Source: Taeniopygia guttata (lineage: Eukaryota). From it: a stretch of DNA of 64,000 nt. The stretch spans positions 4,599,324-4,663,323 of the forward strand of contig NC_133041.1 in assembly GCF_048771995.1 (NCBI RefSeq). Direction: 5' to 3'. The notes under the pieces are model-generated. The model searched no databases. It was not told the DNA's origin and saw nothing but the letters and a program-made list of their open reading frames with translations. Position 1 is the first letter of the stretch. Each line of letters begins with the position of its first letter. The translations under genes were made by a program, and so were the position numbers. Positions 1-64,000 of the stretch are shown here, piece after piece.

Positions 1-640
1 GAAAGGGGAATTTTGGGGGAAAATTGAGGATAAATGGGAATTTTGGAGCATTTTTGAGGGAAAAGTGAGGGAAAATGGAATTTTGGAGCTTTTTGAGGGA
101 AATTTGAGGAAAAAAGGGAAATTTTGGAGCTTTTTGGGGGAAAATTGAGGAAAAGGGGGAATTTTGAAGCTTTTTGAGGGAAATTTGAGGAAAAAATGGG
201 AATTTTGGAGCTTTTTGGGGGAAATTGAGGGGAAAAGGGGAATTTTGGGGGAAAATTGAGGATAAAAGGGAATTTTGGAGCTTTTGGGGGAAAATTGAGG
301 ATAAAAGGGAATTTTGGAGCATTTTTGAGGGAAAAGTGAGGGAAAAGGGGGAATTTTGGAGCTTTTTGAGGGAAATTTGAGGAAAAAAGGGGAATTTTGG
401 AGCTTTTTGGGGGAAAATTGAGGAAAAGGGGGAATTTTGGAGCTTTTTGAGGGAAAATTTGAGGGGAAAAGGAGAATTTTGGAGCTTTTTGGGAGAAAAT
501 GAGGAAAAAAAGGGAGTTTCGGAGCTTTTTTGGGGAAAAGTGAGGATTAAAGGAAATTTTGGAGCATTTTTGAGGGAAATTTGAGGGAAAAATGGAAATT
601 TCCTTTTTGGGGGAAAATTCGGGGGTAAAGGGGATCCCAC
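1..640. repeat. Tandem satellite with a ~58-60-bp unit (ggggaattttggagctttttgagggaaa(a)ttgaggaaaa..)
   Basis: The periodicity is visible directly, and the ORFs here are low-complexity artefacts. Confidence 0.9.
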
Positions 641-2399
641 CAAGGGGTTTTGGGGGATTTCGGGCAATTTTTGATCACTTTAATTCCATTTAAGTCACTT
701 TAATGTCACTTTTGATCACTTTAGTGTAAATTTTATTCATTTTAAACTCATTTTTACCCCTTTAAGGCACTTAAATGTCACTTTTGGTCACTTCAATGCC
801 ATTTTTGGTCACTTTAATACCATTTTGGATCACTTTAATGCATTTTTTTCTCCATTTAGGACATTTTAATGTAACTTTTCCTCCATTTCCTGGAACTTTG
901 CCTCCCCCTACCCAAATTTTGGGTGGGTTTCAGTCAGTTTTGGGTCATTTTCAGTCGGTTTTGGGTCATTTTCAGTTGGTTTTGGGTTATTTTCAGTCGG
1001 TTTTGGGTGGATTTCAGTCATTTTTTAGGTTTTGAGGGGTTTCACTCCTTTTCAGCTCGGTTTCGCTCATTTTTGGGTCATTTTCTCTTGGTTTTGGGTT
1101 GTTTTCGCTTCATTTTGGGTCAGTTTCACTCAGTTTTGGGTCATTTTCACTCCATTTTGGGTCATTTTCACTCCATTTTGGGTGATTTCGCTCAGTTTTG
1201 GGTGGATTTCACTCAGTTGTGGGCAAGTTTCACTCAGATTTGGGTCATTTTCACTCCATTTTGGGCCAGTTTCACTCCATTTTGGTCCATTTTGGGTCAT
1301 TTTCACTCCGTTATGGGCCATTTTCACTCCATTTTGGGCAAGTTTTCCTCCATTTTGGGCCAGTTTTACTCCATTTTGGGTCATTTTATGTCATTTTTAC
1401 TCCATTTTGGGTAATTTTCACTCAATTTTGGGTAATTTTCACTCCATTTTGTGTTGGTTTCACTCAATTTTGGGTCATTTTCACTCCATTTTGGGCCATT
1501 TTCACTCAATTTTGGGCCATTTTCACTCCATTTTGGGTCATTTTCACTCCATTTTGAGCCATTTTCACTCAATTTTGGGTCATTTTCACTGGGTTTTGGG
1601 CCATTTTCACTGGGTTTTGGGCCATTTTCACTGGGTTTTGGGTCATTATCACTCTGTTTTGGGTCATTTCCACTCCATTTTGGGCCATTTTTACTCTGTT
1701 TTGGGCCATTTTCACTGGGTTTTGGGCCATTTTGGGTCATTTTCACTAGGTTTTGGGCCATTTTCACTCCATTTTGGGCCATTTTCACTCAATTTTGGGT
1801 CATTTTCTCTCCATTTTGGGTCATTTTCACTCCATTTTGTGCCATTTTTACTCAGTTTTGGGCCATTTTCACTGGTTTTTGGGCCATTTTCACTGGTTTT
1901 TGGGCCATTTTCACTCCATTTTGGGCCATTTTGCGTCATTTTCACTGGGTTTTGGGCCATTTTCACTCCATTTTGGGCCAGTTTTACGCCATTTTGGGCC
2001 ACTTTGGGTCATTTTCACTCCATTTTGGGTCATTTTCACTCCACCTTGGGCGATTTTTACTCCGTTTTGGGCCATTTGGGTCATTTTCACTCCATTTTGG
2101 GCCATTTCCACTCCATTTTGGGCCATTTTCACTCCGTTTTGGGCCATTTCCACTCCATTTTGGGCCATTTTCACTCCGTTTTGGGCCATTTCCACTCCAT
2201 TTTGGGCCATTTTCACTCCGTTTTGGGCCATTTTCACTGGGTTTTGTTCCATTTTCACTGGGTTTTGGGCCATTTTCACTCCGTTTTGGGCCATTTTCAC
2301 TCTGTTTTGGGCCATTTTGGTTCATTTTCACTCCATTTTCACTGGGTTTTGTGCCATTTTCACTCCGTTTTGTGCCATTTTGGGCCATTTTCCCCGTTT
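641..2399. repeat. Tandem satellite with ~21-24-bp units (cactttaatg.. then gggycattttcactcmrttttg)
   Basis: There are hundreds of near-identical units. The overlapping multi-frame ORFs (for example 1032-3338) are artefacts. Confidence 0.9.
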
Positions 2400-2602
2400 T
2401 CACTCCCTTTTCCCCTTCTCCCCCCTCCACCTGCGCAGGTTGAGCCCCAGCAGCGCCAGGTTAACCCCGTAGGTGCCGAGGCAGACCAGGCACAGGTCCC
2501 TGAGGCCGAAGAGCAGGACCCCCGCCAGCCACAGCGAGGCCAGCGCCGAGGCCACCGACGAGGCCACCAGGGCCACCGAGGCCACCCGGCCGCGCCGGAC
2601 AC
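2400..2602 (-). CDS. VKORC1: Vitamin K epoxide reductase complex subunit 1, exon 3 (terminal, includes stop)
   Basis: The minus-strand translation is GVRRGRVASVALVASSVASALASLWLAGVLLFGLRDLCLVCLGTYGVNLALLGLNLRRWRGEKGKRE*. It aligns to the VKORC1 C-terminal half (..[35 protein letters not shown]..) and includes the CxxC redox motif. The acceptor is ..ctgtggcag| at 2603-2604 (revcomp), and the phase (1 nt from exon 2) gives LLLG|V. Confidence 0.85.
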
Positions 2603-2639
2603 CTGCCACAGAGGTCACACCAGTTTGGCCCAGTTTGGC

Positions 2640-4600
2640 CCAGTTTGGTCCCAGTCTGTCCCCAGTTTGGCCTCAGTTTCCCCAGTTTGTTCCCAGTTTG
2701 TCCCAGTGTCCTCCTCAGTGTTCCCAGTTTGGTCCCAGTTCCTCCCCAGTTTGTCCCAGTTTCTCCCAGTGTCCTCCTCACCTTCCTCCACAGTTTGTCC
2801 CAGTTTCTCCCCAGTTTCTCCCAGTTTCTCTCCCAGTTTCCCCAGTTTGTCCCCAGTTTCCCCAGTTTGTCCCCAGTTTCCCCAGTTTGTCCCCAGTTTG
2901 TCCCCAGTTTGGCCCAGTTTGCCCCAGTTTGGCCCAGCCACAGCGAGGCCAGCGCCGAGGCCACCGACGAGGCCACCAGGGCCACCGAGGCCACCCGGCC
3001 GCGCCGGACACCTGCCAGAGAGGTCACACCGGTTTGGCCCAGTTTGGGCCCAGTCTGGCCCAGTTTGTCCCCGGTTTGGCCTTAATGTTCCCAGTCTGTC
3101 CCCAGTTTCTGCCCAGTTTGGCCTCAGTGTCCCCAGTTTGTCCCAGTGTCCTCCTCACCTTCCTCCCCAGTTTGTCCCAGTGTCCCCCAGTTTTTCTCAG
3201 TTTGTCCCAGTTTGTCCCCAGTCCCCTCCAATCCCCTCCCAGTCCCTCCCAGTCCCTCCCAGTTCCCTCCCAGTCCATCCCAGTATAACCCAGTCCCCCC
3301 AATCCCCCCAAAACCCCACCCAGTCCCTTCCAGTATAACTCAGTGCCCCCAAACCTCCTCCCAGTCTCTCCCAGTCCATCCCAGTAACCCCGAATTCCAT
3401 CCCAGTTCCCTGTAACCCCCTCCCAGTCCCTCCCAGTATAACCCAGTCCCCCCCAAACCCCCAAAAACCCCTCCCAGTCCCTCCCAGTCCCCTTTAACCC
3501 CCTCCCAGTCCATCCCAGTGCCCTTTAACCCTTTCCCAGTCCCTCCCAATCCCCCCAATCCACTCCCAGTCCTTCCCAGTCCCCTCCAATCCCATCCCAG
3601 TCTGTCCCAGTATAACCCAGTCCCCCCCAATCCCCTCCCAGTCCCCTTTAACCCCCTCCCAGTTCCCTCCCAGTCCCTCCCAATCCCTTTCCAGTCCATC
3701 CCAGTCCCTCCCAGTTCCCTCCCAGTCCCTCCCAACCCCCTCCCAGTCCCTCCCAGTCCATCCCAGTGCCTTTTAACCCTTTCCCAGTCCCCCCCAATCC
3801 CATCCCAGTCTGTCCCAGTATAACCCAGTCCCCCCCAATCCCCTCCCAGTGCCCTTTAACCCCCTCCCAGTTCATCCCAGTCCCTCCCAGTGCCCTTTAA
3901 CCCCCTCCCAGTTCCCTCCCAATCCCTTCCCAGTCCATCCCAGACCCCCCAATCCCTCCCAGTCCCCTCCCAGTCTATCCCAGTCCCCCCAAACTACCTC
4001 CCAGTCCCTCCCAGTGCCTTTTAACCCTTTCCCAGTTCCCTCCCAGTCCCTCCCAGTCCCCCCCAAACCCCCTCCCAGTCCCTCCCAGTGCCCTTTAACC
4101 CCCTCCCAGTCTCTCCCAGTGGCTCCCAGTCCCCCCCCAACACCCACCCAGTCCCTCCCAGTCCATCCCAGTGCCTTTTAACCCTTTCCCAGTTCCCTCC
4201 CAGTCCCCCCAATCCCCTCCCAGTCCCTCCCAATCCCTCCCAGTCCCCTCCCAGTCTATCCCAGTCCCTCCCAGTGCCCTTTAACCCCCTCCCAGCCCCT
4301 CCCAGTGGCTCCCAGTCCCCCCCAAACCCCCTCCCAGTGGCTCCCAGTGGCTCCCAGTATAACCCAGTCCCCCCCAACCCCCTCCCAGTCCCTCCCAGTC
4401 CCTCCCAGTGCCCCCCAAACCCCCTCCAAGTCCCTCCCAGTGGCTCCCAGTGACTCCCAGTCCCCCCCAAACCCCATCCCAGTCCCTCCCAGCCCCTCCC
4501 AGTCTATCCCAGTCCCCCCCAAACCCCATCCCAGTCCCTCCCAGCCCCTCCCAGTCCCTCCCAGTCCCCCCCAAACCCCCTCCCAGTGGCTCCCAGTACA
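2640..4600. repeat. Satellite (cccagtttg / ccctcccagt, ~9-10-bp unit) filling VKORC1 intron 2
   Basis: The periodicity is visible directly. Confidence 0.9.
2934..3041 (-). pseudogene. Partial duplicate (~105 bp, ~98% identical) of the VKORC1 exon 3 5' end plus its acceptor, lying inside intron 2
   Basis: Sequence 2936-3019 is identical to 2525-2608 (offset 411 bp), and the AG acceptor is retained (ctctctggcag|gtgtcc on the minus strand). Reading from this copy runs on into the cccagtttg satellite (ORF 2461-3027). Confidence 0.8.
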
Positions 4601-4622
4601 CCCCAGTGCCCGGGGTTGTTAC

Positions 4623-4732
4623 CCAGCAGCCCCTGCAGCAGGTAGAAGATCAGCCCGATGGCGCCATTGGGCACGTTCAGGGCGCTGGCCCCGCCCAGCA
4701 CCGGCTCCACCAGCCCCAGGCCACGCCCCCAC
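4623..4732 (-). CDS. VKORC1: VKORC1 exon 2 (110 nt)
   Basis: It encodes (R)WGRGLGLVEPVLGGASALNVPNGAIGLIFYLLQGLLG, matching VKORC1 [39 protein letters not shown]. The acceptor is ttttgcag|G and the donor G|GTAAC, and the 110-nt length is the same as human exon 2. Confidence 0.85.
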
Positions 4733-4849
4733 CTGCAAAAGGGGCGTGGCACCGCCGGGACACGCCCACAAATGGTTAGACACGCCCCCACGCCCATATA
4801 TGGTGTGTAACTGCGGATAAACCACGCTCCTTGTTTGTTGCTAAGCCAC

Positions 4850-5800
4850 GCCCACCACATTTACATATCCATAGATGGTCATGGCTGGGTTAAACCACAC
4901 CCCCTCAGCGAGATGCCACGCCTTCATATATGCAAATAGCCCATGCAAACATGGCCGCATGTGGAAATGAATGGAATAAACCACGCCTTCGTTTGCATAT
5001 ATGCAAATGACCCATGCAAATCATGCCTTCATGCCCATATATGGAATAAACCATGCCTCATGCCTATGTATGCAAATAAACCACACCTTCGCCCACCTAT
5101 GCAAATAACCCATGCAAACATGCCCATATATGGAAATAATAGACACAGACCACTCCTTCATGTGCATATATGCAAATAACCCATGCAAATCGCCTTCATG
5201 CCCATATATGCAAATAAACCACGCCTTTATGTCTATATATGCAAATAAACCATGCCTTCATGCCAATATATGCAAATAAACCATGCCCTCATGCCCATAT
5301 ATGCAAAAAATCCATGCAAATAACTCTTTTATGCCCATATCTGGAAATAAATTATGCAAACGATGTCCTCATGCCTATATATGCAAATAGCCCATTCAAA
5401 ACATGCATTCATATATGCAAATAAGTGACACAAACCACGCCTCCATGCCCATATATGCAAATAACCCATGCAAACAACTACTTCATGCCCATATATGCAA
5501 ATAAACCATGCCCTCATGCCCATATATGCAAATAACCTACACAAACCACCCCTGCATGCCCATATATGCAAATAACCCATGCAAACCATGCCTTCATGCA
5601 CATATATGTAAATAAACCATGCCCTCATGCCAATATATGCAAATAACCCATGCAAACCACCCCTGCATGCCATATATGCAAATAAACCATGCATTCATGC
5701 CCATACATGCAAATAACCCATGCAAACCACGCCTCCATGCTATATATGCAAATAAATCATGCAAACCACACCCCCATACCCATATATGGACACAGTATAT
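4850..5800. repeat. ~25-bp satellite (catgcccatatatgcaaataaaccatgcctt) in VKORC1 intron 1
   Basis: The periodicity is visible directly. Confidence 0.9.
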
Positions 5801-5939
5801 TTATTCATGCAATATAAATCTTTAATTAACATAAACCCCGCCCCTTATTTAAGCCACGCCTCTTCCCGTACTCCATACAAAGCCCCGCCCCTTTCTCCTC
5901 ACGGGCCCCGCCCACCACGCCCCCTAGCGAATCGCCCCG

Positions 5940-6130
5940 CCCCTCCACCACCATTGGCCGCCGCCTGACGCAAGCCCCGCCCACTCGCGTTTCCCTCACT
6001 ACCATTGGCCGCCGCCTCAGCAGGCCCCGCCCACTCAATTTTCCCGCCAACACCGCTGCCTAGCGGCCCGTCCTTCCCCTCCCCGCTATTGGCCGCCGCC
6101 TCACGCAAGCTCCGCCCACTCCCGTTCCCG
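5940..6130. promoter_or_regulatory. Three tandem modules of a CCAAT box plus GC box in VKORC1 intron 1
   Basis: The motif ccattggccgccgcc..(c)ccccgcccactc occurs three times (about 5953, 6004, 6087). Read on the VKORC1 sense strand each is a CCAAT box next to an Sp1-like GGGCGGGG site. Confidence 0.35.
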
Positions 6131-6174
6131 CCCGCCCCCTCCCGTTACTCCCGGGCCGTTCCCGGTGCTTTTAC

Positions 6175-6329
6175 CGGGAGGAAAACACCCGCGTGCAGGA
6201 CACCGAGGGCCCCAGGTCGCAGGCGGCTCGGTAGGACGGGTCCTTGGCCACCTCATGCTCCACATGCAGCGCGTACACCGACAGCGCCGCGCCCGCCACA
6301 CACAGCGCCGCCCGCAGCGCCGCCGCCAT
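6175..6329 (-). CDS. VKORC1: VKORC1 exon 1 coding part (ATG at 6327-6329)
   Basis: It encodes [52 protein letters not shown], matching VKORC1 ..[35 protein letters not shown]. The donor is CG|GTAAAAG, leaving R split across exons 1 and 2. The tracked ORF begins at an upstream in-frame GTG (6368), but the first ATG is at 6329. Confidence 0.8.
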
Positions 6330-6779: not shown

Positions 6780-9230
6780 TGGGATGGAACTGGGAATAAA
6801 CTGGGAAAGAGCTGGGATTAAACTGGGATGGAACTGGGATTAAACTGGGATGGAACTGGGATTAAACTGGGATGGAACTGGGAGCCCAAACTGGGAGCAC
6901 TGGGAACCCCTCATGGATCAAAATGGGAGCACTGGGATCAAACTGGGATTCTCCCATCCCAATGTGGTTTTTCCCCCTTTTATTGTGTTTTTCTTCTCCT
7001 TTTTCGCCCCTAAATCCCCAATTTTTTCCCAAATTCCCCAAACGTTTCCCAAATCCCCCCATTTTTCCTCATTTCCACCCATTTCTTCCCAATTTGTTCC
7101 CATTTTTCCCAATTTCCCCCCAATTTCCCCCTTTTTCACCAATTTTCTCCCATTTCCCAATTTCCTCTAATTTACCCCCATTTTTTCTTCCATGTTCCCT
7201 TATTTTCCCCTATTTTTTCTAATTTCCCCCCTATTTTTCCCTTTTCCCCCCATATTGTTCCCATTTCCTCCCATTTTGCTCAATTTACCCCATTTTTCTC
7301 CCATTTTCCCAAATTTTTCCCAATTTTTTCCCATTTTCCTTCATTTTCCCCCCTTTTCCCCATTTTCTCCCATATTTTCCTCAATTTACCCCAATTTTCC
7401 CCATTTTCTCCCATTTCCCTCCATTTTTCTCAATTTTTTCCCATTTATCACCATTTTTTCCCAATTCCCCCTATTTTCTCCAATTTCCCCCCATTTTTCT
7501 CAATTTTTTCCCATTTCCCCCAATTTTCCCCATTTATTCCCCATTTTTTCCCATTTCCCCCCATTTTTCCCCCCATTTTCCCAATTTCCCCCAATTTTCC
7601 CCATATATTCCCATTTTCCACATTTTTTCTCAATTTTTCTCATTCTTCCCTGTATTCTCCCCAATTCCCTCCATTTTTCCCCTTGTTTTCCCATTTTTCC
7701 CCATTTTTTCCATTTTTTCCAATTTACTCCCAATTTTCCCCATTTCCTCCCATTTCCCCCGAATTTTCCCTACTTTTCCCCCATATTATCCCAAATTTCC
7801 CCCATTTTTCCCCATTTTCTCCAATTTTTCCCCATTTATCCCAATTTTCCCCAATTACCCCAATTTGCCCCATTTTCCCCCGTTTTCTCCAATTTTTTTC
7901 CATTTTTTCCCCTTTTTCCAATTTTTTTCCTGATAAATTCCCATTTCCCCACATTTTTTTATCAATTTTTTCCTTTTTCTCTCATTTTTCCCATTTTTCC
8001 CATTTTACCCCATTTCCCCCCCATATTTTTCCCATTTCCCCCCATTTTTCCCAATTTCCTCCCATTTCCTCCCATTTTCCCCATTTTTTCCCATTTTTTT
8101 TCCATTTTTCTCAATTTTTCCCATTTTTTCCCCATATATTCCCAATTTTCTCAATTTTTCCCATTTTTTTCCCATTTTACCCCATATCTCCCCCATATTT
8201 TTCCCAATTCCCCCCCATTTTTCCCAATTTCCCCCCATTTTCCCCCATTTTTCCCAATTTCCCCCCATTTTCCCCCATTTTTCCCAATTTCCCCCCATTT
8301 TCCCCCATTTTTCCCAATTTCCCCCATTTTCCCCCATTCCCCCCCATATTTCCCCCCATCTCCCCTCCATTTTCCCCTTGTTTTCCCCCCACTTTTCCCG
8401 ATTTCCCCCCATTTTTCCCTATTTTCCCCCATTTTCCCCATATTTTCCCCATTTTCCCCCATTTTCCCCCATTTTTCCGCATTTCCCCACATATTTTTCC
8501 CTATTCCCCCCATATTTTTACCAATTTCCCCCCTTTTTCCCTATTTCCCCCCAATTTCCCAATTACCCCCATTTTCCCCATTTTTCGCAATTTCCCCCAT
8601 TTTTCTCCCCAAATATTCCCATTTTTACCCCAAATTTTCCCGTTGTTTCCCATTTTTACCCCATTTCCCCCCATTTTCCCCATTTCCCCACATAATTTTC
8701 CCAATTTCCCCCCATTTTTCTCCCCAAATATTCCCATTTTTTCCCATTTTTACCCCAAATTTTCCCATTTTTACCTCATTTCCCCCCATTTTTCCCAATT
8801 TTCCCCCATTTTCCCCCCATTTTTCTCCCCAAATATTCCCATTTTTTCCCATTTTTACCCCAAATTTTCCCGTTTTTTCCCATTTTTACCCCATTTCCCC
8901 CCCATATTTCCAATTTCCCCCCATTTTTCCCAATTTCCCCCCATTTCCCTCCAATTTCCCCCCATTTTTCCCGATTTCCCCCATTTTTCTCCCATTTTCC
9001 CCCATTTTCCCCCATTTTCCTCCATTTCCCCCCATATTTTTCTCAATTTTTCCCATTTCCCCCCATTTTTCCCAATTCCCCCCATTTTCCCAATTTCCCC
9101 CCATTTCCCCCCATTTTCCTCCCAAATATTCCCATTTTTTCCCATTTTTACCCCAAATATTCCCATTTTTCCCCATTTTTACCCCAAATTTTCCCATTTT
9201 CCCCGCATTTTCCCCCAATTTCCCCCCCAG
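6780..9230. repeat. A 22-bp satellite ctgggatggaactgggattaaa (6780-6960), then a ~20-bp pyrimidine-only satellite ccccattttcccaatttcc (6960-9230)
   Basis: The plus strand is almost free of G, so all three frames stay open (ORFs 7192-9714 and 7683-9692 are artefacts). Confidence 0.9.
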
Positions 9231-9627
9231 CCCCCCATGTCCGCCCCCCCCTCCCCCCTCCCCCCCCCCCTGCACACCCTCACCCTCACCCCTCCCCCCC
9301 CCCCCCCAAATCCCCCCAGGAACCCCCGGAACACCCCGACAAACCCCCGGAAAAAGCCCCAAAATCGCCGGAATTCGCCCCAAACCCGCCGGAGGAGGAG
9401 GAGTGGGGGGTGCCCTGGAGCGAGGAGGAGGAGGAGGAGCCCCCCGGGGGATGGACCCCCGAGCCCCCCGAGATCCGGCGCCTCTTCGAGGCCATCGCGC
9501 GCGCCGGGACCCTCCCGCTGCGGAGCGGCCCCCTGCCCCGCCGCCAGCCCACCCCGGAGCCCCCCAGCGACCCCGAGGACGGGGGGGACCCCGCCCAGAG
9601 CCCCCCCCAGCGGCCCCCCGAGATCAA
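9231..9627 (+). CDS. PAGR1: PAXIP1-associated glutamate-rich protein 1, first coding exon (5' boundary and start unresolved)
   Basis: Frame 2 encodes ..EEEEWGVPWSEEEEEEPPGGWTPEPPEIRRLFEAIARAGTLPLRSGPLPRRQPTPEPPSDPEDGGDPAQSPPQRPPEI(K), matching human PAGR1 ..[55 protein letters not shown]... The donor is AA|GTACAC at 9628. The candidate ATG at 9237 (preceded by the acceptor-like ttcccccccag) is in frame 0 and would join frame 2 if the C17 homopolymer at 9291-9307 were one base longer. Confidence 0.65.
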
Positions 9628-9689
9628 GTACACTTTGGGGCAAAAAATGGGCGTTTTGGGCAAAAAAAAAGGGGATTTTTAGGTGGTTT

Positions 9690-13080: not shown

Positions 13081-13100
13081 CAAACTTTGGGATTTTCCAG

Positions 13101-13183
13101 GCCCCCTCCCCCCACGGAATTCGATTTTGACGACGAGCCCCTCCCCCCCAGCCCCGCCCTGATCGACCGGCGCCGCGCCCCAG
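13101..13183 (+). CDS. PAGR1: PAGR1 exon (83 nt)
   Basis: The acceptor is ttttccag|G and the donor cag|GTACC. It encodes (K)[27 protein letters not shown](G), matching human PAGR1 [26 protein letters not shown], and the phases fit both the previous and the next exon. Confidence 0.85.
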
Positions 13184-13189
13184 GTACCA

Positions 13190-14170: not shown

Positions 14171-14181
14171 CCCCATTTCAG

Positions 14182-14336
14182 GCCCGCCCAGCCGGGGGCA
14201 GAAGCGCGAGGCGCGGCTGGACAAGGTCCTGTCGGACATGAAGCGCCACAAGCGGCTGGAGGAGCAGATCCTGCGCACCGGCCGGGACCTGTTCCCGCCC
14301 CAGGGCCAGCGCCCCTTCCCCCGCCACAAAAACTGA
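14182..14336 (+). CDS. PAGR1: PAGR1 terminal coding exon (stop TGA at 14334-14336)
   Basis: The acceptor is ccccatttcag|. It encodes (G)[50 protein letters not shown], a near-identical match to human PAGR1 [37 protein letters not shown]. Confidence 0.85.
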
Positions 14337-52740: not shown

Positions 52741-52745
52741 CCCAG

Positions 52746-52890
52746 GGACGAGGAGCGTCGCGGGGCGGAGCGGCGGCGCGAGGAAAAGGCCAAGAAGAAA
52801 CTGGAGCGGAAAAGCCGCCGGGAGGAGGAGGAGGAGGAGGAGGAAGGGGGAGAGTGGGAGAAGGTCAAGGGAGGAGTCCCCCTCATCAAG
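52746..52890 (+). CDS. EIF3C: EIF3C exon 10
   Basis: It encodes (K)[48 protein letters not shown], matching human [49 protein letters not shown]. Confidence 0.9.
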
Positions 52891-52899
52891 GTGGGAAAT

Positions 52900-54860: not shown

Positions 54861-54862
54861 AG

Positions 54863-55004
54863 GGCGGCGCAGATCGAGCTGCTGCAGCACCTGGTGGCCG
54901 TGGCCCACGAGCACCAGCTGGGGGTGCCCCTGGAGCTGAAAATCAAATTCAACATCGTGGCCTCGCTCTACGACTACAACCCCAACCTGGCCGCCTACAT
55001 GAAG
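54863..55004 (+). CDS. EIF3C: EIF3C exon 12
   Basis: It encodes (R)[47 protein letters not shown], matching human [47 protein letters not shown]. Confidence 0.9.
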
Positions 55005-55009
55005 GTGAA

Positions 55010-56150
55010 ATCGGGGCAAAAAACGGGGAAATCGGGCAAAAAACACAGAAAAAAAAAAGGGGAAATCGGGCAAAAAATAGAGAAAAAAAATGGGGAAAAT
55101 TGGGGCAAAAATGGGGTTAAAAATGTGATTTATTTGGATTTTTTTTTGATTTTTTGAAGGTAAAAGAAGGGTTAAAAATGAAATTTAAAAGGGAAAAAAA
55201 TTGGGGAAAATTGAGATAAAATAAGCAAAAAATTGGGGAAAATTTAATTAAAATTTGGTGAAAAAAGGGTTAAAAATGGGATTTATTTGGATTTTTGGGG
55301 AATTTTTTAAGGGAAAATAAGGGTTAAAAATGAAATTATAAAAGGGAAAACTGGGGGGAAATTAAGATAAAATGGGGAGAAAATTGGGGAAAATTTGGTG
55401 AAAATTGGGTGAAAAAAGGAATAAAAATGACGATAATAATGGGATTTATTTGGGTTTTTGGGACTACAACCCCAACCTGGCCGCCTACATGAAGGTGAAA
55501 ACGGGGCAAAAAACAGCGAAATTGGGCAAAAAATAGAGAAAAAAACCCGGGGGAAATTGGGGCAAAAATGGAGAAAATATGGAGAAAATATGGGGAAAAA
55601 AAGGTGGAAAATTGGGGTTAAAAATGTGATTTATTTGGATTTTTTTGCGATTTTTTTAAGGGAAAATAAGGGTTAAAAATGAAATTAAAAAGGGAAAAAA
55701 TTGGGGAAAATTAAAAGAAAATGAGGAAAAAATTGGGGGAAATTTGGTGAAAATTGGGTGAAAAAAGGAATAAAAATGGGGATAAAAATGGGATTTATTT
55801 GGATTTTGGGGATTTTTTAAAGGTAAAACAAGGGTTAAAAATGGAGGAAGAATGGGGAAAATTGAGATAAAATTAGGAAAAAATTGGGGAAAATTTGGTG
55901 AAAATTGGGTGAAAAAAGGGTGAAAAATGGGGATAAAATGGGATTTATTTGGATTTTTTTAAAGGTAAAACAAGGGTTAAAAATGAAATTAAAAAGGGAA
56001 AAAATGGGGGAAAATTGAGATAAAATGAGGGAAAAATTTGGTGAAATTTGGTGAGAAAAGGAATAAAAATGGGGTTAAAAATGGGATTTATTTGGGTTTT
56101 TGGGACTACAACCCCAACCTGGCCGCCTACATGAAGGTGAAAACGGGGCA
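55010..56150 (+). other. Two partial copies of the EIF3C exon 12 3' end plus donor in a ~640-bp higher-order repeat
   Basis: The unit gactacaaccccaacctggccgcctacatgaag|gtgaaaacggggcaaaaaac occurs at about 55463 and 56103. In the copies the breakpoint lies inside the exon, before GACTAC. Confidence 0.8.
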
Positions 56151-56639
56151 AAAAACGGCAAAATCGGGCAAAAAATAGAGAAAAAAACCCGGGGGAAATT
56201 GGGGCCAAAATGGGGAAAATATGGGGGAAAAACGGTGGAAAATCGGGGTAAAAATGGGATTTATTTGGAATTTTTTTGGGATTTTTTGAAGGTAAAAGAA
56301 GGGTTAAAAGTGAAATTTAAAAGGGAAAAAAAATTGGGGAAAATTGAAATAAAATAAGCAAAAAATTGGGGAAAATTTAATTAAAATTTGGTGAAAAAAG
56401 GGTTAAAAATGGGATTTATTTGGATTTTTTAGGAATTTTTGGAGGTAAAACAAGGGTTAAAAATGAAATTAAAAAGGGAAAAAATGGGGGAAATTAAAAT
56501 TAAATGAGGAAAAAATTGGGGGAAATTTGGTGAAAATTGGGTGAAAAAAGGAATAAAAATGGGGGGAAAAATGGGATTTTTTTGGATTTTTTTTGGGATT
56601 TTGTGAAGGGCGGATCTGTGGGTCAGACAGGATCTATGG

Positions 56640-57514
56640 GGCGGATCTATAGGGTGAGTTTCTATAGGCGGAGCTGTGGCAGCGCTGCCTGGGATGTATA
56701 GAGGAGCTCCTGGAGCTGCTATGGGGCAGATCTATAGGCTCGGGGCGGATCTATGGGCTCGGGGCGGATCTATGGGGCAGATCTATGGGTCAGACAGGAT
56801 CTATGGGGCGGATCTATAGGGTGATATTCTATAGGCGGAGCTGTGGCAGCGCTGCCTGGGATGTATAGAGGAGCTCCTGGAGCTGCTATGGGGCAGATCT
56901 ATAGGCTCGGGGCGGATCTATAGGGCAGATCTATGGGTCAGACAGGATCTATGGGTCAGACAGGATCTATGGGTCAGGGCGGATGTGTGGGTCAGGATCT
57001 ATAGGGTGATATTCCATAGGCGGAGCTGTGGCAGCGCTGCCTGGGATGTATAGAGGAGCTCCTGGAGCTGCTATGGGGCAGATCTATGGGCTCGGGGCGG
57101 ATCTATGGGGCAGGATGGATCTATAGGGCAGGATCTGTGGGTCAGGATCTATGGGGCAGATCTATAGGGTGAGTTTCTATAGGCGGAGCTGTGGCAGCGC
57201 TGCCTGGGATGTATAGAGGAGCTCCTGGAGCTGCTATGGGGCAGATCTATAGGCTCGGGGCGGATCTATGGGGCAGGGTGGATCTATAGGGCAGATCTAT
57301 GGGTCAGACAGGATCTATGGGGCGGATCTATAGGGTGATATTCTATAGGCAGAGCTGTGGCAGCGCTGCCTGGGATGTATAGAGGAGCTCCTGGAGCTGC
57401 TATGGGGCAGATCTATGGGCTCGGGGCGGATCTATGGGGCAGGATGGATCTATAGGGCGGATCTGTGGGTCAGACAGGATCTATGGGGCGGATCTATAGG
57501 GTGATATTCTATAG
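56640..57514 (+). other. Five upstream partial copies of the EIF3C exon 13 acceptor plus its first ~53 nt in a ~170-bp tandem array
   Basis: The unit ttctatag|gc[ga]gagctgtggcagcgctgcctgggatgtatagaggagctcctggagctgct occurs at about 56669, 56836, 57021, 57181 and 57351. The copies diverge after GCTGCT into atggggcagatctat.., and only the final copy continues into the real exon. Confidence 0.85.
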
Positions 57515-57640
57515 GCAGAGCTGTGGCAGCGCTGCCTGGGATGTATAGAGGAGCTCCTGGAGCTGCTCTTTGCCCACCCCGAGATCTTCGTGGGCGAAAA
57601 CGTCCTCGAGGAGTCCGAGAACCTCAGCAACCCCGAGCAG
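57515..57640 (+). CDS. EIF3C: EIF3C exon 13
   Basis: It encodes [42 protein letters not shown], matching human [42 protein letters not shown]. The acceptor is ttctatag| and the donor CAG|GTATGG. Confidence 0.85.
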
Positions 57641-58460
57641 GTATGGGGCAATCTATGGGGCACCTATGGGGCACTTGTGGGGTACTTGTGGGGCACTTAT
57701 GGGGCATTTATGGGGTGTGGGGGCACCTATGGGGTCATTTTTGGGGTCACTTATGGGGTAATCTATGGGGTCATTTATGGGGCTCCTATGGGGTCATTTA
57801 TGGGGTGTGGGGGCACTTATGGGGTTATTTATGGGGCACTTATGGGGTAATCTATGGGGCACTTATGGGGCACCTGTGGGGTCACTTATGGGGCACCTGT
57901 GGGGTCACTTATGGGGAACTTATGGGGCACTTTGGGGCACTTATGGGGCACTTATTGGGTTATCTATGGGGTCACTTATGGGGCACCTATGGGGCACTTA
58001 TGGGGCACCTATGGGGCACTTATGGGGCACCTATGGGGTCATTTATGAGGCACTTACGGGGCACTTATGGGGCACTTATGGGGTACCTATGGGGCATTTA
58101 TGGGGCACTTGTGGGGTCATTTATAGGGTCACTTTTGGGGTCACTTATGGGACACTTATGGGGATTTTGGGGTCACTTTTGGGATTTTGGGGTCATTTTG
58201 GGGTCAGTTTTGGGGTAATTTTGGGTTTATTTATGGGATTTTATGGTCGGTTTTGGTTTTTGGGGTAAATTTTGGGGATTTTGGGTCCGTTTCAGCCGTT
58301 CCGGGTGCGCGGCTGCGTCCTGACCCTGGTGGAGCTGAGGGGTCATTTTGGGGTCATTTATGGGTTTTGGGGTCACTTTTGGGGTTTTTTGGGTGGGTTT
58401 TGGGTTTTTGAGGACAGTCACGGATTTTTGGGGTAAATTTTGGGGATTTTGGGTCCGTTT
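57641..58460. repeat. ~22-bp satellite (cacttatggggcacctatgggg)
   Basis: ORFs 57523-58218 and others (MGHLWGTYG..) are artefacts. Confidence 0.9.
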
Positions 58461-58463
58461 CAG

Positions 58464-58557
58464 CCGTTCCGGGTGCGCGGCTGCGTCCTGACCCTGGTGG
58501 AGCGGATGGACGAGGAGTTCACCAAGATCATGCAGAACACCGACCCCCACTCCCAGG
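58464..58557 (+). CDS. EIF3C: EIF3C exon 14
   Basis: It encodes [31 protein letters not shown](E), matching human [32 protein letters not shown]. One partial upstream copy of the acceptor plus first ~45 nt lies at about 58284-58330. Confidence 0.9.
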
Positions 58558-59589
58558 GTGGGTCCGGCTGTGGGGCAGAGCTCGGCCCCATAGATCCAAA
58601 AACCCCAAAAAAACCCAAAAACCCCAAAAAATCTGAAAAAATGTGAATTTTTGGTCATTTTTTGGCTTAATTTCCTTTTTTTTTGGCCAATTTTGGTCAT
58701 TTTCACTCCAAATTTGGAGGTTCTGTGGGGCAGGTGGGATGTGGGGCAGAGCTCGGCCCCATAGATCCCAAAAACCCCAAAACCACAAAAAAAAACCCAA
58801 AAAAAAATCTCAAAAAATGTGAATTTTTGGTCTTTTTTTGGGAAATTTTCACTTTTTTTGGCCAATTTTGGTCATTTTCACCCCAAATTTGGGGTTTTTG
58901 TGGGGCAGGGGGGAAGTGGGGGAGGGCTCGGCCCCATAGATCCCAAAAAACCCCAAAAAACCCCAAAAAACAAAAAAAAAAACCCAAAAAAACCTCAAGA
59001 AATGTGAATTTTTGGTCATTTTTTGGCTTAATTTCCTTTTTTCTTGGCCAATTTTGGTCATTTTCACCCCAAATTTGGGGTTTTTGTGGGGCAGGTGGGA
59101 TGTGGGGAAGGGCTCGGCCCCATAGATCCCAAAAACCCCAAAAAACCCCAAAAAACAAAAAAAAAAATCTCAAAAAATGTGAAATTTTGGTCATTTGTTG
59201 GCCAATTTTAGCTTTTCATGGCCAATTTTGGTCATTTTTACCCCAAATTTGGGGTTTTTGTGGGGCAGGTGGGATGTGGGGCAGGGCTCGGCCCCATAGA
59301 TCCCAAAAACCAAAAAAAACCCCAAAAAACCCCAAAAAAACTCCCCAAAAAAACCCTCAAAAATGTGAATTTTTGCTGATTTTTTTGGCCAACTTTGGCT
59401 TTTTTTTTGGCCAATTTTGCTCCTTTTCACCCCAAATTTGGGGCTTCTGTGGGACAGGTGAGCTCCGGGTGGGCGGAGACTCACCTGGGTGAGGTTTTGG
59501 GGTTTTTGGAGGGGATTTTTGGGGTATTTTGGGGTTTTTTTGGGTTTTTTGGTGGTTTTTTGGGTTTTTAAAGTCTCACCTGCCCACCA

Positions 59590-61929
59590 GGTGTGCCCAG
59601 GTGTGTCCAGGTGTGACCTCAGTGTACCTGGAGCACCTGAAGGATCCAAACCCTGAACGGGGGCTCACCTGGAGCTCACCTGGCTGTGATTTCGATGGGA
59701 TTTTTGGGGTTTTTTTGGACTTTTTTGGGTTTTTTGGGGTTTCTTGGGGTTTTTTTGGCATTTTAATCCCTCACCTGCCCACAAGGTGTGCCCAAGTGTG
59801 CCCAGGTGTGCCCAGGTGAATCCTCAGAACTCCTGGAGCACCTGAAGGATCCAAATCCTGAGCTGGAGCTCACCTGGCTGGGATTTTGATGTGGTTTTTT
59901 GGGGGTTTTTTGGGTTTTTTGGTGTTTTTTGGGTTTTTAAAGTCTCACCTGCCCACCAGGTGTGCCCAGGTGTGACCTCAGTGTACCTGGAGCACCTGAA
60001 GGATCCAAACCCTGAACTGAGACTCACCTGGAGCTCACCTGGGGCTCACCTGGATGGATTTTGGAGGATTTTTGGGGTATTTTTGGGCTTTTTTGACATT
60101 TTAATCCCTCACCTGCCCACAAGGTGTGCCCACAAGGTGTGCCCAGGTGTGCCCAGGTGAATCCTCAGAACTCCTGGAGCACCTGAAGGAGCTGGAGCCT
60201 CACCTGGGGCTCACCTGGAGCTCACCTGGCTGGGGATTTTGGGGATTTTTTGGAGTATTTTGTGGGTTTTTTGGGTTTTTAGGTCTCACCTGCCCAACAG
60301 GTGTGCTCAGGTGAGTCCTCAGAACACCTGGAGCCTCACCTGGGGCTCACCTGGCTGGGTTTTTTGGGGATTTTTTGGGCTTTTTTTGGTTTTTTTGGTG
60401 TTTTTTTGGCATTTTAATCCCTCACCTGCCCACCAGGTGTGCCCAGCTGTGCCCAGGTGAGTCCTCAGAACACCTGGAGCACCTGAAGGAGGTGGAGCCT
60501 CACCTGGAGCTCACCTGGCTGGGATTTCGATGTGGTTTTTGGCTTTTTTTTTGTCCTTTTTTTGGTTTTTTTTTTGGTTTTTTTTCTTTTTTCGCTATTT
60601 GCCCCCTCACCTGCCCGCCAGGTAACCCAGGTGTGTCCTTTCAGAGTACGTGGAGCACCTGAAGGATCCAAACCCTGAACTGGGGCTCACCTGGCTGGGA
60701 TTTCAATGGGATTTTTGGGGTTTTTTTGGGTTTTTTGGTATTTTCAGCCTCACCTGCCCGCCAGGTGACCCCGCCAGGTAACCCAGGTGTGTCTTTGCAG
60801 AGTACGTGGAGCACCTGAAGGAGCCGGAGCCTCACCTGGAGCTCACCTGGCTGTAATTTTGATGTGGTTTTTGGCGCTTTTTTGTCCTTTTTTTGGATTT
60901 TTTTTTTGCATTTTCCGCTATTTCCCCCTCACCTGCCCGCCAGGTAACCCAGGTGTGCCTTCACAGAGTACGTGGAGCACCTGAAGGAGCTGGAGCCTCA
61001 CCTGGGGCTCATCTGAGGCTCATCTGGAGCTCACCTGGCTGGGATTTCAATGTGATTTTTTGGGGTATTTTTGGGGATTTTTGGTGTTTTTTGGGTTTTG
61101 AAGGTCTCACCCCTCAGCCAGGTGTGTCCAGGTGAGTCCTCAGAACAATTGGAGAACCTGAAGGAGCCGGAGCCTCACCTGGCTGGGATTTTGGGGATTT
61201 CTTGGTGTATTTTTGGCCTTTTTTTGTCCTTTTTTTGGGTTTTTTTGGGGTTTTTTTTGCCACTTCCCCCCTCACCTGCCTGCCAGGTGTGCTCAGGTGT
61301 GCCCAGGTGTGACCAGGTGTGACTTCAGTGTACCTGGAGCACCTGAAGGATCCAAACCCTGAACTGAGACTCACCTGGAGCTCACCTGGAGCTCACCTGG
61401 AGCTCACCTGGGGCTCACCTGGGGCTCACCTGGCTACGATTTTGGGGTTTTTTGGGCTTTTTTAATCATTTTTTTGGATTTTTTTCCTTTTTTCACTACT
61501 TCCACCCTCACCTGCCCGCCAGGTAACCCACCAGGTAACCCAGGTGTGTCTTTCAGAGTACGTGGAGCACCTGAAGGATCCAAACCCTGAACTGGGGCTC
61601 ACCTGGAGCTCACCTGGCTGCGATTTTGGGGATTTCTTGGTGTATTTTTGGCTTTTTTTTGTCCTTTTTTTGGGTTTTTTTTCCTTTTTTCGCTATTTCC
61701 TCCCTCACCTGCCCGCCAGGTGAGCTCAGCTGTGCCCAGGTGTGTCCAGGTGAGTCCTGAGAACACCTGGAGCACCTGAAGGATCCAAACCCTGAACTGG
61801 AGCTCACCTCGCTATGATTTCTATGTGATTTTTCGGGGTTTTTTAGGTTTTTTGGGCGTTTTTTTGGCATTTTCACCTTTACCTGCCCGCCAGGTGACCC
61901 CGCCAGGTAACCCAGGTGTCTCTTCCCAG
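59590..61929 (+). other. About 12 upstream partial copies of the EIF3C exon 15 acceptor plus first ~22 nt, in a ~150-190-bp tandem array
   Basis: The motif (t)ttcag|agtacgtggagcacctgaag and the variants cag|aacacctggagcacctgaag and cag|tgtacctggagcacctgaag occur at about 59609, 59828, 59972, 60166, 60466, 60644, 60800, 60965, 61140, 61325, 61548 and 61757. Each is followed by gatccaaaccctgaactgg..ctcacctgg rather than the exon body. Confidence 0.85.
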
Positions 61930-62096
61930 AGTACGTGGAGCACCTGAAGGACGAGGCGCGGGTGTGCGGCATCATCGGGCGGCTGCAGCGCTACCTGCAG
62001 GCCAAGGGCAGCCCCGAGGAGCTGTGCCGGGTGTACCTGCTGCGCGTCCTCCACACCTACTACAAGTTCGACTACGCCGCCGCCCGCCGCCGCCAG
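61930..62096 (+). CDS. EIF3C: EIF3C exon 15
   Basis: It encodes (E)[55 protein letters not shown], matching human [55 protein letters not shown]. Confidence 0.9.
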
Positions 62097-62186
62097 GTGC
62101 GGCCCCGCCCGCAGGTGAGCCCCGGCCCGCAGGTGAGCCCCGGCCCGCAGGTGAGCCCCGGCCCGCAGGTGAGCCCTGACCCGCAG
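62097..62186 (+). repeat. An intron (or exitron) built from 5 tandem 18-bp units, each starting GT and ending AG, that stays in frame with the flanking exons
   Basis: The units are gtgcggccccgcccgcag once, gtgagccccggcccgcag three times and gtgagccctgacccgcag once. The ORF track reads straight through them as [30 protein letters not shown]. Confidence 0.85.
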
Positions 62187-62275
62187 GAGAAGGAGAAGGA
62201 GGATGAGGAGAAGGAGAAGCAGGAGGAGGAGGAGGAGGAGGAGGATTCGGAGGCGTTGATGGAGAGGTTGTGCAG
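62187..62275 (+). CDS. EIF3C: EIF3C exon 16 (the gene continues beyond the window end)
   Basis: It encodes [29 protein letters not shown](R/K), matching human ..[22 protein letters not shown]. The donor is AG|GTGAGT at 62276. Confidence 0.85.
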
Positions 62276-64000
62276 GTGAGTGGGGCACACCTGGGCACAC
62301 CTGGAGGGCATCAAGACACACCTGGATACACCTGGGTGGGGTCAGGGCACATCTGGGTGGGGTCAGGGCACACCTGGGTACACCTGGGTACACCTGGAGG
62401 TGTTAAAGACACACCTGGATTGGCTTAGAGAACACCTGGATACACCTGGAGGGGGTAAAGACACACCTGGGTGGGGTAAAGGCACTCCTGGACACACCTG
62501 GAGAGGGTCAGGGCACACCTGAGTACTCCTGGGTTGGGTCAGGGCACACCTGGGTGGGGTCAGGGCACACCTGGGTGGGGTCAGGGCACACCTGGGTGGG
62601 GTCAGGGCACACCTGGATACACCTGGAGGGCATAAAGACACACCTGGATTGGCTTAGGGCACACTTGGAGGGAGTCAGGGCACACCTGGAGGGGGTAAAG
62701 ACACACCTGGGTACACCTGGGTGGGGTGGGGGCACACCTGGGTGGGGTTGGGGCACACCTGGATATACCTGGATACACCTGGGTGGGGTTTGGGCACACC
62801 TGGGTGGGGTAAAGACACACCTGGGCACACATGGATACACCTGGGAGGGCTCAGGGCACACCTGGGTGGAGTCAGGGCACACCTGGGTTGGGTTAGGGAA
62901 CACCTGGATACACCTGGAGGGGGTAAAGACACACCTGGACACACCTGGATACACCTGGAGGGCATAAAGACACACCTGGATACACCTGGGTGGGGTTGGG
63001 GCACACCTGGAGGGGGGAAAGACACACCTGGATACACCTGGAGGGGGTCCAGGCACACCTGGGCACACCTGGATACACCTGGAGGGGGTAAAGACACACC
63101 TGGGTACACCTGGAGGGGGTCAGGGCACACTTGGATACACCTGGGTGGGGTCAGGGCACACCTGGGTACACCTGGGTGGAGTAAACGCACACCTGGGCAC
63201 ACCTGGGTACACCTGGGTAGAGCAAACGCACACCTGGACACACCTGGATACACCTGGAGGGGGTCCAGGCACACCTGGGCACACCTGGGTACACCTGGAT
63301 ACACCTGGGTGGGGTCAGGGCACACCTGGAGGAGGTGGGGATGCACCTGGGTACACCTGGATACACCTGGATGGGGTTGAGGCACACCTGGGTACACCTG
63401 GAGGGGGTCAGGGCACACCTGGATACACCTGGAGGGGGTCAGGGAACACCTGGAGGGGGTAAAGATACACCTGGGCACACCTGGGTACACCTGGAGGGGG
63501 TCAGGGCATACCTGGATACACCTGGAGGGGGTCGGGGCACACCTGGACACACCTGGATACACCTGGGTGGGGTCAGAGCACACCTGGGCACACCTGGAGG
63601 GGGTCGGGGCACACCTGGACACACCTGGATACACCTGGGTGGGGTCAGAGCACACCTGGGCACACCTGGAGGGGGTCAGGGCACACCTGGGCACACCTGC
63701 AGGGAGACGAGACACACCTGGAGGGGGTCAGGGCACACCTGGACACACCTGGATACACCTGGAGGGGGTCCGGGCACACCTGGGCACACCTGGATACACC
63801 TGGGTGGGGTCAGGGCACACCTGGAGGAGGTGGGGATGCACCTGGGTACACCTGGGTGGGGTTGGGGCACACCTGGGTACACCTGGAGGGCATAAAGACA
63901 CACCTGGATTGGCTTAGGGCACACTTGGAGGGAGTCAGGGCACACCTGGGCACACCTGGAGGAGGTGGGGATGCACCTGGGCACACCTGGATGGGGTCAG
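62276..64000. repeat. ~30-bp satellite (cacacctgggtggggtcagggcacacctgga..) in EIF3C intron 16; it runs to the window end
   Basis: It is rich in CACCTG/CAGGTG E-box motifs, and its many ORFs are artefacts. Confidence 0.9.

Follow-up and report, generated by a model that had tools for sequence, protein, structure and literature searches.

A compact zebra finch gene block filled with locally arisen minisatellite arrays and partial exon copies, and a candidate in-frame array in HIRIP3

Sequence stuttering is a property of chicken dot chromosomes, described by Hron et al. (Genome Biol Evol 2026, PMC12954441; preprint September 2025), in which introns are occupied by imperfect tandem repeats that remain confined to them, with a median intron coverage of 7-93% depending on the dot chromosome. 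The same authors recognized exon stuttering in 236 introns of 115 genes, where 20-187 bp taken from an exon border are repeated in 1-44 copies per expansion, and EIF3C, located on chicken chromosome 38, is among the genes listed. Chicken introns of this kind show strong length polymorphism between individuals, orthologous introns differ between related species, and the architecture was confirmed with raw nanopore reads, while the repeats were reported never to cross into exons, leaving coding regions intact. As the origin, the authors suggested either replication or repair stress at G-quadruplex (G4)-forming DNA or else meiotic gene conversion where recombination is abundant (PMC12954441). For the zebra finch, two preprints, one on the telomere-to-telomere (T2T) assembly (10.1101/2025.10.14.682431) and one on non-B DNA (10.1101/2025.10.17.683159), describe dot-chromosome euchromatin as about 51% degenerate minisatellite and dot-chromosome introns as more than 70% tandem repeat, the commonest unit lengths being multiples of 10-11 bp; the repeats overlap with G4, A-phased and direct-repeat motifs, and the coding-strand bias of intronic G4 motifs is strongest on the dots. 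The present analysis concerns a window of 64,000 nucleotides from Taeniopygia guttata (contig NC_133041.1, positions 4,599,324 to 4,663,323), which carries VKORC1, PAGR1, HIRIP3, INO80E and the 5' part of EIF3C. This window is very probably zebra finch dot-chromosome euchromatin, corresponding to the chicken chromosome 38 and human 16p11.2 block, whose arrays arose in place by stuttering.

The five genes had been named by a first-pass annotation made from the letters of the window, and all of them were rebuilt as in-frame exon chains, which were assembled after the non-repetitive islands had been read in six frames and the exon edges in three. The 27 internal exon junctions are canonical AG/GT without exception, 32 exons are distributed over the five genes, and four of the genes exceed the curated cut-offs of Pfam-A, while HIRIP3 is identified by its match in the nr protein collection. 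Searches by tblastn with human proteins served as a lead only, and the gene calls rest on Pfam, PDB and database homologues. Across the whole 64-kb window, Tandem Repeats Finder (TRF; default scoring, score at least 50) covers 83.9% of the sequence, compared with 0.3-1.0% in copies shuffled within 1-kb blocks, in good agreement with the roughly 85% that had first been stated. What remains unmasked are 93 islands, mostly 40-550 bp in size. The introns, 41.6 kb in total, are 87% covered, against the more than 70% given in the zebra finch preprints, and coverage intron by intron lies between 0.46 and 1.00 for all introns longer than 100 bp. The exons other than HIRIP3 exon 2 amount to 3.8 kb, have a GC content of 69% with 0.87-0.93 at third codon positions (GC3), and are only 19% covered; they measure 35-346 bp, the sole exception to this size range being the 3,319-bp HIRIP3 exon. 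The region had been called GC-rich, which is true of the exons and does not extend to the window, whose overall GC is 44.6%.

In these respects the locus resembles chicken stuttering closely: introns filled with imperfect local tandem repeats and bounded by exons, GC-rich exons, intergenic spacers affected as well, and EIF3C involved in both species. The arrays had been described as satellites, and they do share with classical satellite DNA the tandem layout and the high proportion of sequence that they occupy. Classical satellites form long homogeneous arrays of one family at many loci that are typically heterochromatic, whereas the arrays here are 0.1-2.3 kb long, degenerate (59-90% matches by TRF), intragenic, and divided among about 37 mostly private families in gene-dense euchromatin. 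They are short, degenerate, local minisatellites, for which "minisatellite" or "stutter" is the more accurate term.

The locality of the arrays bears directly on their origin. When 76 arrays of at least 150 bp were clustered, 37 families were obtained at a 12-mer containment of at least 0.10 and 18-28 at looser thresholds, so that the earlier count of more than 30 holds at the stricter setting and falls below it otherwise. Of the 16-mers occurring at least three times, 80% belong to just one intron or spacer; on average, 16-mers are shared at 0.29 inside a segment and at 0.003 across segments, where the median is 0. A different family for each intron, as first proposed, is therefore largely but not strictly what is found, since members of one family, AAAAATGGGG/CCCCATTTTT, are found in four EIF3C introns (3, 5, 8 and 11), between VKORC1 and PAGR1, and in HIRIP3 exon 2, and since a 10.5-bp pattern consisting of an A/T-run plus a G-run is common to all array families. 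One member of this recurrent family is a CCCCATTTTT array of 2.2 kb and period 10 upstream of PAGR1 (7057..9226, plus strand; TRF and family clustering), which has a 16-mer sharing of 0.13 with EIF3C intron 3. Autocorrelation of the non-exonic sequence reveals the 10.5-bp periodicity, with peaks at 10-11, 21, 31-32, 42, 52-53 and 63 bp, and TRF periods are bunched at 10, 11, 20-23, 31-33, 41-44, 51-52 and 63. Different segments also have 7% of their 10-mers in common, eightfold the 0.9% of shuffled sequence. The recurrent family, the shared 10-mers and the common periodicity would all be expected if the arrays represented a few dispersed satellite or transposon-derived families that had spread in from elsewhere. 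Such an invasion is nevertheless very unlikely, given the private 16-mers, the zero median of sharing across segments, the absence of any match when the whole window was scanned with Rfam (gathering threshold) and for transfer RNAs, and the existence of 11 arrays in which parts of the neighbouring unique exon are embedded in the same orientation, for which only a local origin is possible. The short shared motif itself could still derive from a transposable element. The empty scans also indicate that the introns are without recognisable small nucleolar RNAs or other non-coding RNAs.

These exon-derived pieces were identified by repeating the published exon-stuttering screen (blastn-short, no dust filter, at least 20 nt, more than 42.1 bits). 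It yields 46 partial exon copies in 11 expansions, with all five genes represented. All copies are on the strand of the source exon. They are found in the intron next to it, or in the 3' flank when the source is a terminal exon, and each has one end no more than 4 nt away from the exon border; in five shuffled controls the best match reached 36.2 bits, and none exceeded 42.1. Splice sites were carried along, with GT following 13 of 13 copies of 3' exon edges and AG preceding 11 of 12 copies of 5' exon edges, so that 24 of the 25 decoys from internal exon edges retain AG or GT. Identity of the decoys to their source exons is 90-100%. Copies of 22-127 nt, at 1-12 per expansion, fall within the 20-187 nt and 1-44 copies of chicken, and the copying of an exon edge together with its splice site into the adjacent intron, from a source at the exon border, is the same in both birds. 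Because copies of otherwise unique exon sequence lie inside the arrays, the arrays grew in place, and because the species is not the chicken, the zebra finch arrays are independent of those described there. The partial exon copies, absent from the first-pass annotation, are the most informative feature of the window.

The expansions differ in the edge that was copied. In VKORC1, the first 78 nt of exon 3 recur with a CAG acceptor in intron 2 (2934..3011, minus strand; 155 bits, 100% identity). PAGR1 has the last 127 nt of exon 1 three times in intron 1 (10460-10586, 11238-11364 and 11667-11793, plus strand; 236-252 bits, 98-100%), each followed by GTACACTT with its GT donor, and the last 52-59 nt of its coding sequence, including the stop codon, twelve times beyond the gene (14445..17725, plus strand; 84-117 bits, 93-100% identity). 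With periods of 178, 356 and 499, these twelve copies, covered by TRF arrays at 14278-17078, fill the entire 4.1-kb spacer across which PAGR1 and HIRIP3 stand tail to tail. INO80E behaves similarly, the last 44 nt of its coding sequence (...LDGDDELVIDLPE plus stop) being found nine times in the 3' flank (33202..34464, plus strand; 72-88 bits, 95-100%), where tblastn also picked them up. The chicken screen was restricted to introns, and the stuttering of two terminal-exon ends with their stop codons into the 3' flank is a difference from it; as a consequence, the 3' untranslated regions (UTRs) or polyadenylation regions of PAGR1 and INO80E must lie within stuttered copies or consist of them. 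In HIRIP3, the 5' 40 nt of exon 5 are copied once in intron 4 (19034..19073, minus strand; 48 bits, 90% identity), and here the acceptor has been lost, the upstream flank ending in TAT.

EIF3C contributes the remaining expansions, all on the plus strand. The 3' 45-59 nt of exon 5 occur three times in intron 5 (45351..46321; 66-86 bits), with GTCAG after each; the 3' 31-38 nt of exon 8, encoding ...SLASKFLKK, occur five times in intron 8 (49804..51309; 44-68 bits), each followed by GTCAGGAA, which provides a GT donor; and the 3' 33 nt of exon 11 occur twice in intron 11 (55462..56136; 66 bits, 100%), with the GT donor of GTGAAAAC after each. The same intron holds five copies of the 5' 50-53 nt of exon 12 with a TAG acceptor (56671..57401; 100-105 bits, 100% identity). 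In this array of 166-bp units (56563-57590), the six copies do not differ at all over the 50-53 nt taken from the exon, and the intronic part of the units varies through substitutions and sub-repeat indels, which suggests that the amplification was very recent or that the true exon is still converting the copies. Exon 13 has its 5' 40 nt copied once, with a CAG acceptor, in intron 12 (58296..58335; 80 bits, 100% identity), and the 5' 22 nt of exon 14 four times with a CAG acceptor in intron 13 (60645..61578; 44 bits each, 100%); the latter barely exceed the threshold of 42.1 bits, and related "EHLKDPNPE" frames are visible in the six-frame reading.

Repeats of this density raise the question of assembly or sequencing artefacts, such as noisy long reads or mis-joined repeats. 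Strong drop-outs of HiFi coverage in dot-chromosome euchromatin are mentioned in the zebra finch preprints, and PAGR1 lacks an in-frame ATG beside C-runs of 11-14 bases, which could be a homopolymer error. An artefact of this kind would hardly leave 27 canonical internal junctions and five chains in frame, a VKORC1 that matches its RefSeq protein exactly, and decoys 90-100% identical to their source exons, and the same architecture is present in the raw nanopore reads of chicken (PMC12954441) and in a curated zebra finch T2T assembly. It is thus scarcely credible as an explanation of the arrays.

The identity of the block follows from its gene content. The first-pass annotation had suggested an avian dot chromosome or microchromosome, and this is supported by a VKORC1 protein equal to that of T. 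guttata, by chicken orthologues on dot chromosome 38, where EIF3C, MAZ, KAT8, PPP4C and ALDOA are located, and by the match to the published architecture of dot euchromatin. Human EIF3C belongs to BP2-BP3, the distal interval of 16p11.2, and PAGR1, HIRIP3 and INO80E belong to BP4-BP5, where MVP, CDIPT, SEZ6L2, ASPHD1, KCTD13, TMEM219 and TAOK2 are placed between PAGR1 and HIRIP3 and DOC2A follows INO80E. Human VKORC1 is situated more proximally still, by about 1 Mb. All five of these genes are found in the window, and the order and orientation PAGR1(+)-HIRIP3(-)-INO80E(+) are kept, with HIRIP3 and INO80E head to head as in human. They occupy about 62 kb here and roughly 2.4 Mb in human; INO80E is separated from EIF3C by 5.3 kb. 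The idea of a compact 16p11.2-orthologous cluster is a fair one, but the order as a whole is not collinear: the VKORC1 and EIF3C flanks are swapped, and the window lacks both the DOC2A that follows INO80E in human and the seven genes that separate PAGR1 from HIRIP3 there, KCTD13 and DOC2A being listed as lost in all birds. The swapped flanks and missing genes indicate that compaction included rearrangement and gene loss.

The arrays are further marked by a strand asymmetry. On the sense strand of the introns, G outnumbers C two to one (11,919:5,739), and canonical intronic G4 motifs number 142 on the sense strand and 34 on the antisense strand. Four introns have C-rich sense-strand arrays and thus the opposite polarity, namely HIRIP3 intron 4 (18550-19396), INO80E intron 2 (29180-30157), EIF3C intron 3 (41304-43366) and EIF3C intron 10 (54016-54862), so that a simple transcription-coupled rule fails. 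EIF3C intron 3 contains 19 G4 motifs antisense and none sense. It might be supposed that the intronic arrays are kept for a function, by which G4 motifs and A-tracts tune splicing or transcription, or by which recombination hotspots are provided. The sense-strand G4 bias of most introns, the helical-repeat phasing of the arrays, and decoys whose exon-derived part is identical while the neighbouring intronic part is variable would suit such a role, and roles in splicing and recombination are raised in the zebra finch non-B DNA preprint (10.1101/2025.10.17.683159). Selection for function is nonetheless unlikely in view of array sequences that are private and fast-diverging, of the reversed polarity in four introns, and of orthologous introns that differ between related species and between individual chickens (PMC12954441).

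Neither the 10.5-bp periodicity nor the excess of G on the sense strand is new; their novelty was considered and rejected, since both are found in the same zebra finch non-B DNA preprint. More broadly, intron-dominating repeats, locality (the AAAAATGGGG family excepted) and exon stuttering are found here as Hron et al. described them, and unit lengths at multiples of 10-11 bp and coding-strand enrichment of intronic G4 motifs as described for the same species in the zebra finch preprints. The general features measured in the window have all been described previously, and the kind of sequence is therefore already known. The portions of the zebra finch preprints that were consulted present genome-wide statistics, in which neither this locus nor its exon decoys nor the HIRIP3 array is described.

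Stuttering in place would consist of many rounds in which local segments, some tens to hundreds of bases in length, slip or are duplicated in tandem, and the probable driver would be replication or repair slippage and unequal exchange. The substrate would be non-B-prone sequence in which G-runs, most of them on the non-template strand, follow one another about every 10.5 bp, and which belongs to a small chromosome reported to be highly recombining. Whenever a duplicated segment spanned an exon-intron border, the exon edge and its splice site would become intronic decoys, while the true exons would be kept intact by selection; as an exception, in-frame expansion may have been tolerated in a disordered, Glu/Lys-rich region of HIRIP3, giving rise to a 3.3-kb repeat exon. 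Several points weigh against this reading. The strand polarity is reversed in the four introns named above, the dot-chromosome assignment is indirect and derives from the location of the orthologues on chicken chromosome 38, and the mechanism is one that we infer from the pattern, on which the cited papers themselves only speculate.

The published description of intact coding regions applies to 30 of the 32 exons of the window. The exceptions are HIRIP3 exon 2 (3.3 kb) and EIF3C exon 14, with an 18-bp unit repeated five times; in contrast to chicken, the former, and possibly the latter, appear as in-frame coding expansions. HIRIP3 (18437..27356, minus strand) was modelled with five exons, 27322-27356 (ATG), 23871-27189, 21207-21351, 19397-19489 and 18437-18549 (stop), giving a model protein of 1,234 aa. 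No Pfam hit was obtained for this model, and its assignment comes from the C-terminus, which has the CHZ region and the DWSxLRG motif of the HIRIP3/Chz1 family. Over the C-terminal 202 aa, identity to the nr entry "HIRA-interacting protein 3 [Taeniopygia guttata]" is 98%, and 202 library proteins match the CHZ-type region at E <= 0.001. Many HIRIP3 relatives lead to exons 3-5 by tblastn, and the extended CHZ region, residues 403-527 in human HIRIP3, is conserved with human and other species. The N-terminal domain of vertebrate HIRIP3 (FxRSxFxGxPDLSxLTHxIVRxxYL) had no tblastn match in the window with full-length homologues. The N-terminus of the model (MAAAAAASGCE..., then ...APGGGEADCACAELEGGVARG) matches a model from Pseudopodoces humilis (ground tit), which is likewise without the vertebrate N-terminal domain, and the end of exon 2, ...SAGSDSEDSEDLPLAKWAEKRRK..., is common to all passerine HIRIP3 models. 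The N-terminus of passerine HIRIP3 may thus have been lost or replaced.

Between these two conserved HIRIP3 blocks, which share one reading frame, lie 3.1 kb of tandem repeats. Exon 2 (23871..27189, minus strand) is a candidate coding stutter, in which about 19-24 units are repeated in tandem and in frame, each with a Lys/Gly/Asn-rich basic patch, a K-F/I-E-S motif and then 10-18 Glu/Asp residues. The frame that joins the N-terminal ACAELEGGVARG to the SGSDSEDSEDLPLAKW block runs through 1,106 codons with 0 stops, against 87 and 21 stops in the other two sense frames and an average of 58 in shuffles, and no other segment of the window of at least 800 bp has a stop-free frame. All 15 TRF periods in exon 2 (81-315 bp) are divisible by three, including those of units with basic patches of unequal length, compared with 55 of 163 outside it, and 22 of the 24 spacings between acidic runs, with 16 distinct lengths, are multiples of three. 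In ten aligned units, differences from the consensus are distributed as 29, 21 and 54 over codon positions 1, 2 and 3, so that the third position varies about twice as much as the first and second.

A contrary account holds that 23871-27189 is mostly intron or untranslated sequence, open by chance, and that the real protein is short, like the database models (200-258 aa). Several observations speak for it and against a translated array. The GC3 of exon 2 is about 0.45, as in intronic arrays and against 0.87-0.93 in the other exons, and the exon carries the AAAAATGGGG motif family that is also found in introns. Annotated passerine HIRIP3 models are all short and start within or after the array, which may in turn reflect gaps in older assemblies. 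The array is matched by no database protein, as judged by a query with the N-terminal repeat that gave no hit among 8,000 low-complexity candidates, a result that is uninformative on coding status. Tracts of the form (GAR)n slip in threes, which means that part of the frame preservation needs no selection, and the antisense frame of exon 2 is open too, by composition. Given the stop-free frame, the periods in multiples of three and the excess of third-position changes, this account is a real possibility rather than a probable one. Exon 2 is somewhat more likely than not to be translated as one piece. That the instability of dot-chromosome introns has also expanded a coding exon, with exon 2 as a single translated 1,106-codon array, partly of AAAAATGGGG type, is a somewhat favoured proposal. 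GTRAG motifs within exon 2 were considered as internal splice donors and rejected, since they are AGT-GAG (Ser-Glu) codons without a preceding AG.

The units recall coding minisatellites of disordered regions, being Glu/Asp- and Lys-rich, in frame and part of a histone chaperone, and they resemble the Glu-rich region of human HIRIP3, whose Glu-rich N-terminal half is dispensable for binding of H2A-H2B in vitro, for which the extended CHZ region is needed. Unlike such minisatellites, the array shares a AAAAATGGGG-type motif with the non-coding stutters and has a low GC3, which suggests that it stems from dot-chromosome instability and not from an old conserved repeat domain. The nr HIRIP3 of T. 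guttata differs from window positions 23871-24140 by a few residue changes and by in-frame changes in the length of Glu runs in the last unit, which would fit an array that varies between individuals or assemblies and is at most a hint of length variation within the species. The N-terminus of an HIRIP3-like protein from Ammospiza caudacuta (…ARKRRMKMRRKK…) looks like an off-frame translation of the acidic repeat, and other passerine gene models may start inside the equivalent array.

Among the other genes, VKORC1 (2400..6329, minus strand) has a complete coding sequence of 155 aa in three exons (6175-6329, 4623-4732 and 2400-2602). It scores 95 bits against the Pfam family VKOR (PF07884; cut-off 27.5) and matches the human VKOR structure 6WV3 at E = 4e-42, keeps the loop cysteines, with C43 and C51, and the CxxC motif (CLVC), and is identical, residue for residue over its full length, to T. 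guttata XP_041575461.1/XP_072792559.1. Between its start and PAGR1 lies a GC-rich, non-repetitive spacer with low TRF coverage (6330..6770), which is probably a bidirectional promoter, judging from its position, and which contains two exact YY1-like AAGATGGCGGC motifs at 6497 and 6687. Allowing up to one mismatch, this YY1-like core occurs 13 times in the window against 0.64 expected, including nine sites within the INO80E intron-4 array (30415-31512) and one at the acceptor of INO80E exon 6.

PAGR1 (9320..14336, plus strand) consists of exons 9320-9627, whose 5' limit is provisional, 13101-13183 and 14182-14336, the last including the stop, and aligns with the whole Pfam profile PAXIP1_C (PF15364; 120 bits, 1-132 of 132). 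Its frame has no in-frame ATG from the stop at 8696 to 9320; the sole nearby upstream ATG, at 9237, is off-frame, with C-runs of 8-14 bases behind it. This could be explained by a splice acceptor at 9319, by a coding exon further upstream or by an error in homopolymer length. ATG mini-exons at 6497 and 6687 were tried as the start of PAGR1 and discarded, as they give no in-frame join to the acceptor at 9319.

INO80E (27902..33110, plus strand) has seven exons, 27902-27985, 29109-29179, 30158-30210, 30316-30391, 31364-31415, 31505-31606 and 32868-33110, with a complete coding sequence of 226 aa. Its N-terminal domain scores 76 bits against the Pfam family INO80E (PF24237), and a C-terminal tail of the INO80E type, DGDDxLVIDxPE, can be read directly in the window, which we take to resemble the human tail. 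In the protein collection searched there is no entry identical to the model, and its middle exons are accordingly less certain. The array in intron 4 was considered as a stutter of the AAGATGGCG edge of exon 6 and rejected, the likeness extending over about 11 nt and falling below the threshold of the screen. The divergent start codons of HIRIP3 and INO80E are separated by a 545-bp spacer (27357..27901) with a TRF coverage of 0.00 and a GC of 0.58, which, from the arrangement of the genes, is probably a bidirectional promoter like that of the human head-to-head pair.

EIF3C (38390..64000, plus strand) continues past the end of the window, which includes its first 14 coding exons: 38390-38487, 39572-39637, 41228-41303, 43367-43480, 44781-44906, 47377-47428 and 48262-48347 for exons 1-7, and 49515-49639, 52746-52890, 53912-54015, 54863-55004, 57515-57640, 58464-58557 and 61930-62275 for exons 8-14. 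The Pfam profile eIF-3c_N (PF05470) is matched from 8 to 441 of 593 with 486 bits, the PCI domain of eIF3 subunit C falling beyond the window. The closest homologues are those of birds, at 85-92% identity, and the acidic linker is like that of the passerine Sylvia borin. A GC-rich, non-repetitive island from the TRF island list (36600..36720), with CGGAAG and TGACGTCA motifs, lies 1.7 kb upstream of the ATG, with a 1.2-kb array between them; from this placement, it is possibly the promoter or a first non-coding exon, followed by a stuttered intron in the 5' UTR. Within exon 14, the 18-bp unit CAGGTGAGCCCCGGCCCG is repeated 5.2 times (62094..62187, plus strand; TRF and three-frame reading) and reads in frame as QVSPGP repeats. 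Every unit contains the consensus donor CAG/GTGAGC, with CAG at its end, and the block could equally be a 90-nt in-frame intron at 62098-62187. Human EIF3C presumably has an intron at this position.

The window illustrates why hundreds of bird genes seemed to be missing, since short, extremely GC-rich exons amid unstable, G4-prone minisatellites defeat both short-read assembly and gene finding based on open reading frames. For chicken and zebra finch this explanation has been published before, and the window mainly confirms it at one locus. What is added is a map of five genes at exon resolution, on which 46 decoy exon edges are placed, useful for understanding how the spliceosome ignores perfect decoy sites, together with two terminal-exon ends, those of PAGR1 and INO80E, whose stop codon has been stuttered into the 3' flank, and a candidate in-frame expansion of a protein-coding exon, in HIRIP3, by the same process. 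The coding array of HIRIP3 may go beyond the published literature. If it is translated, zebra finch HIRIP3 would measure about 1,234 aa, where the human protein has 556 aa and the annotated models of passerines have 200-260 aa; this would contradict the published claim that coding regions are intact and would mean that stuttering can remodel proteins directly.

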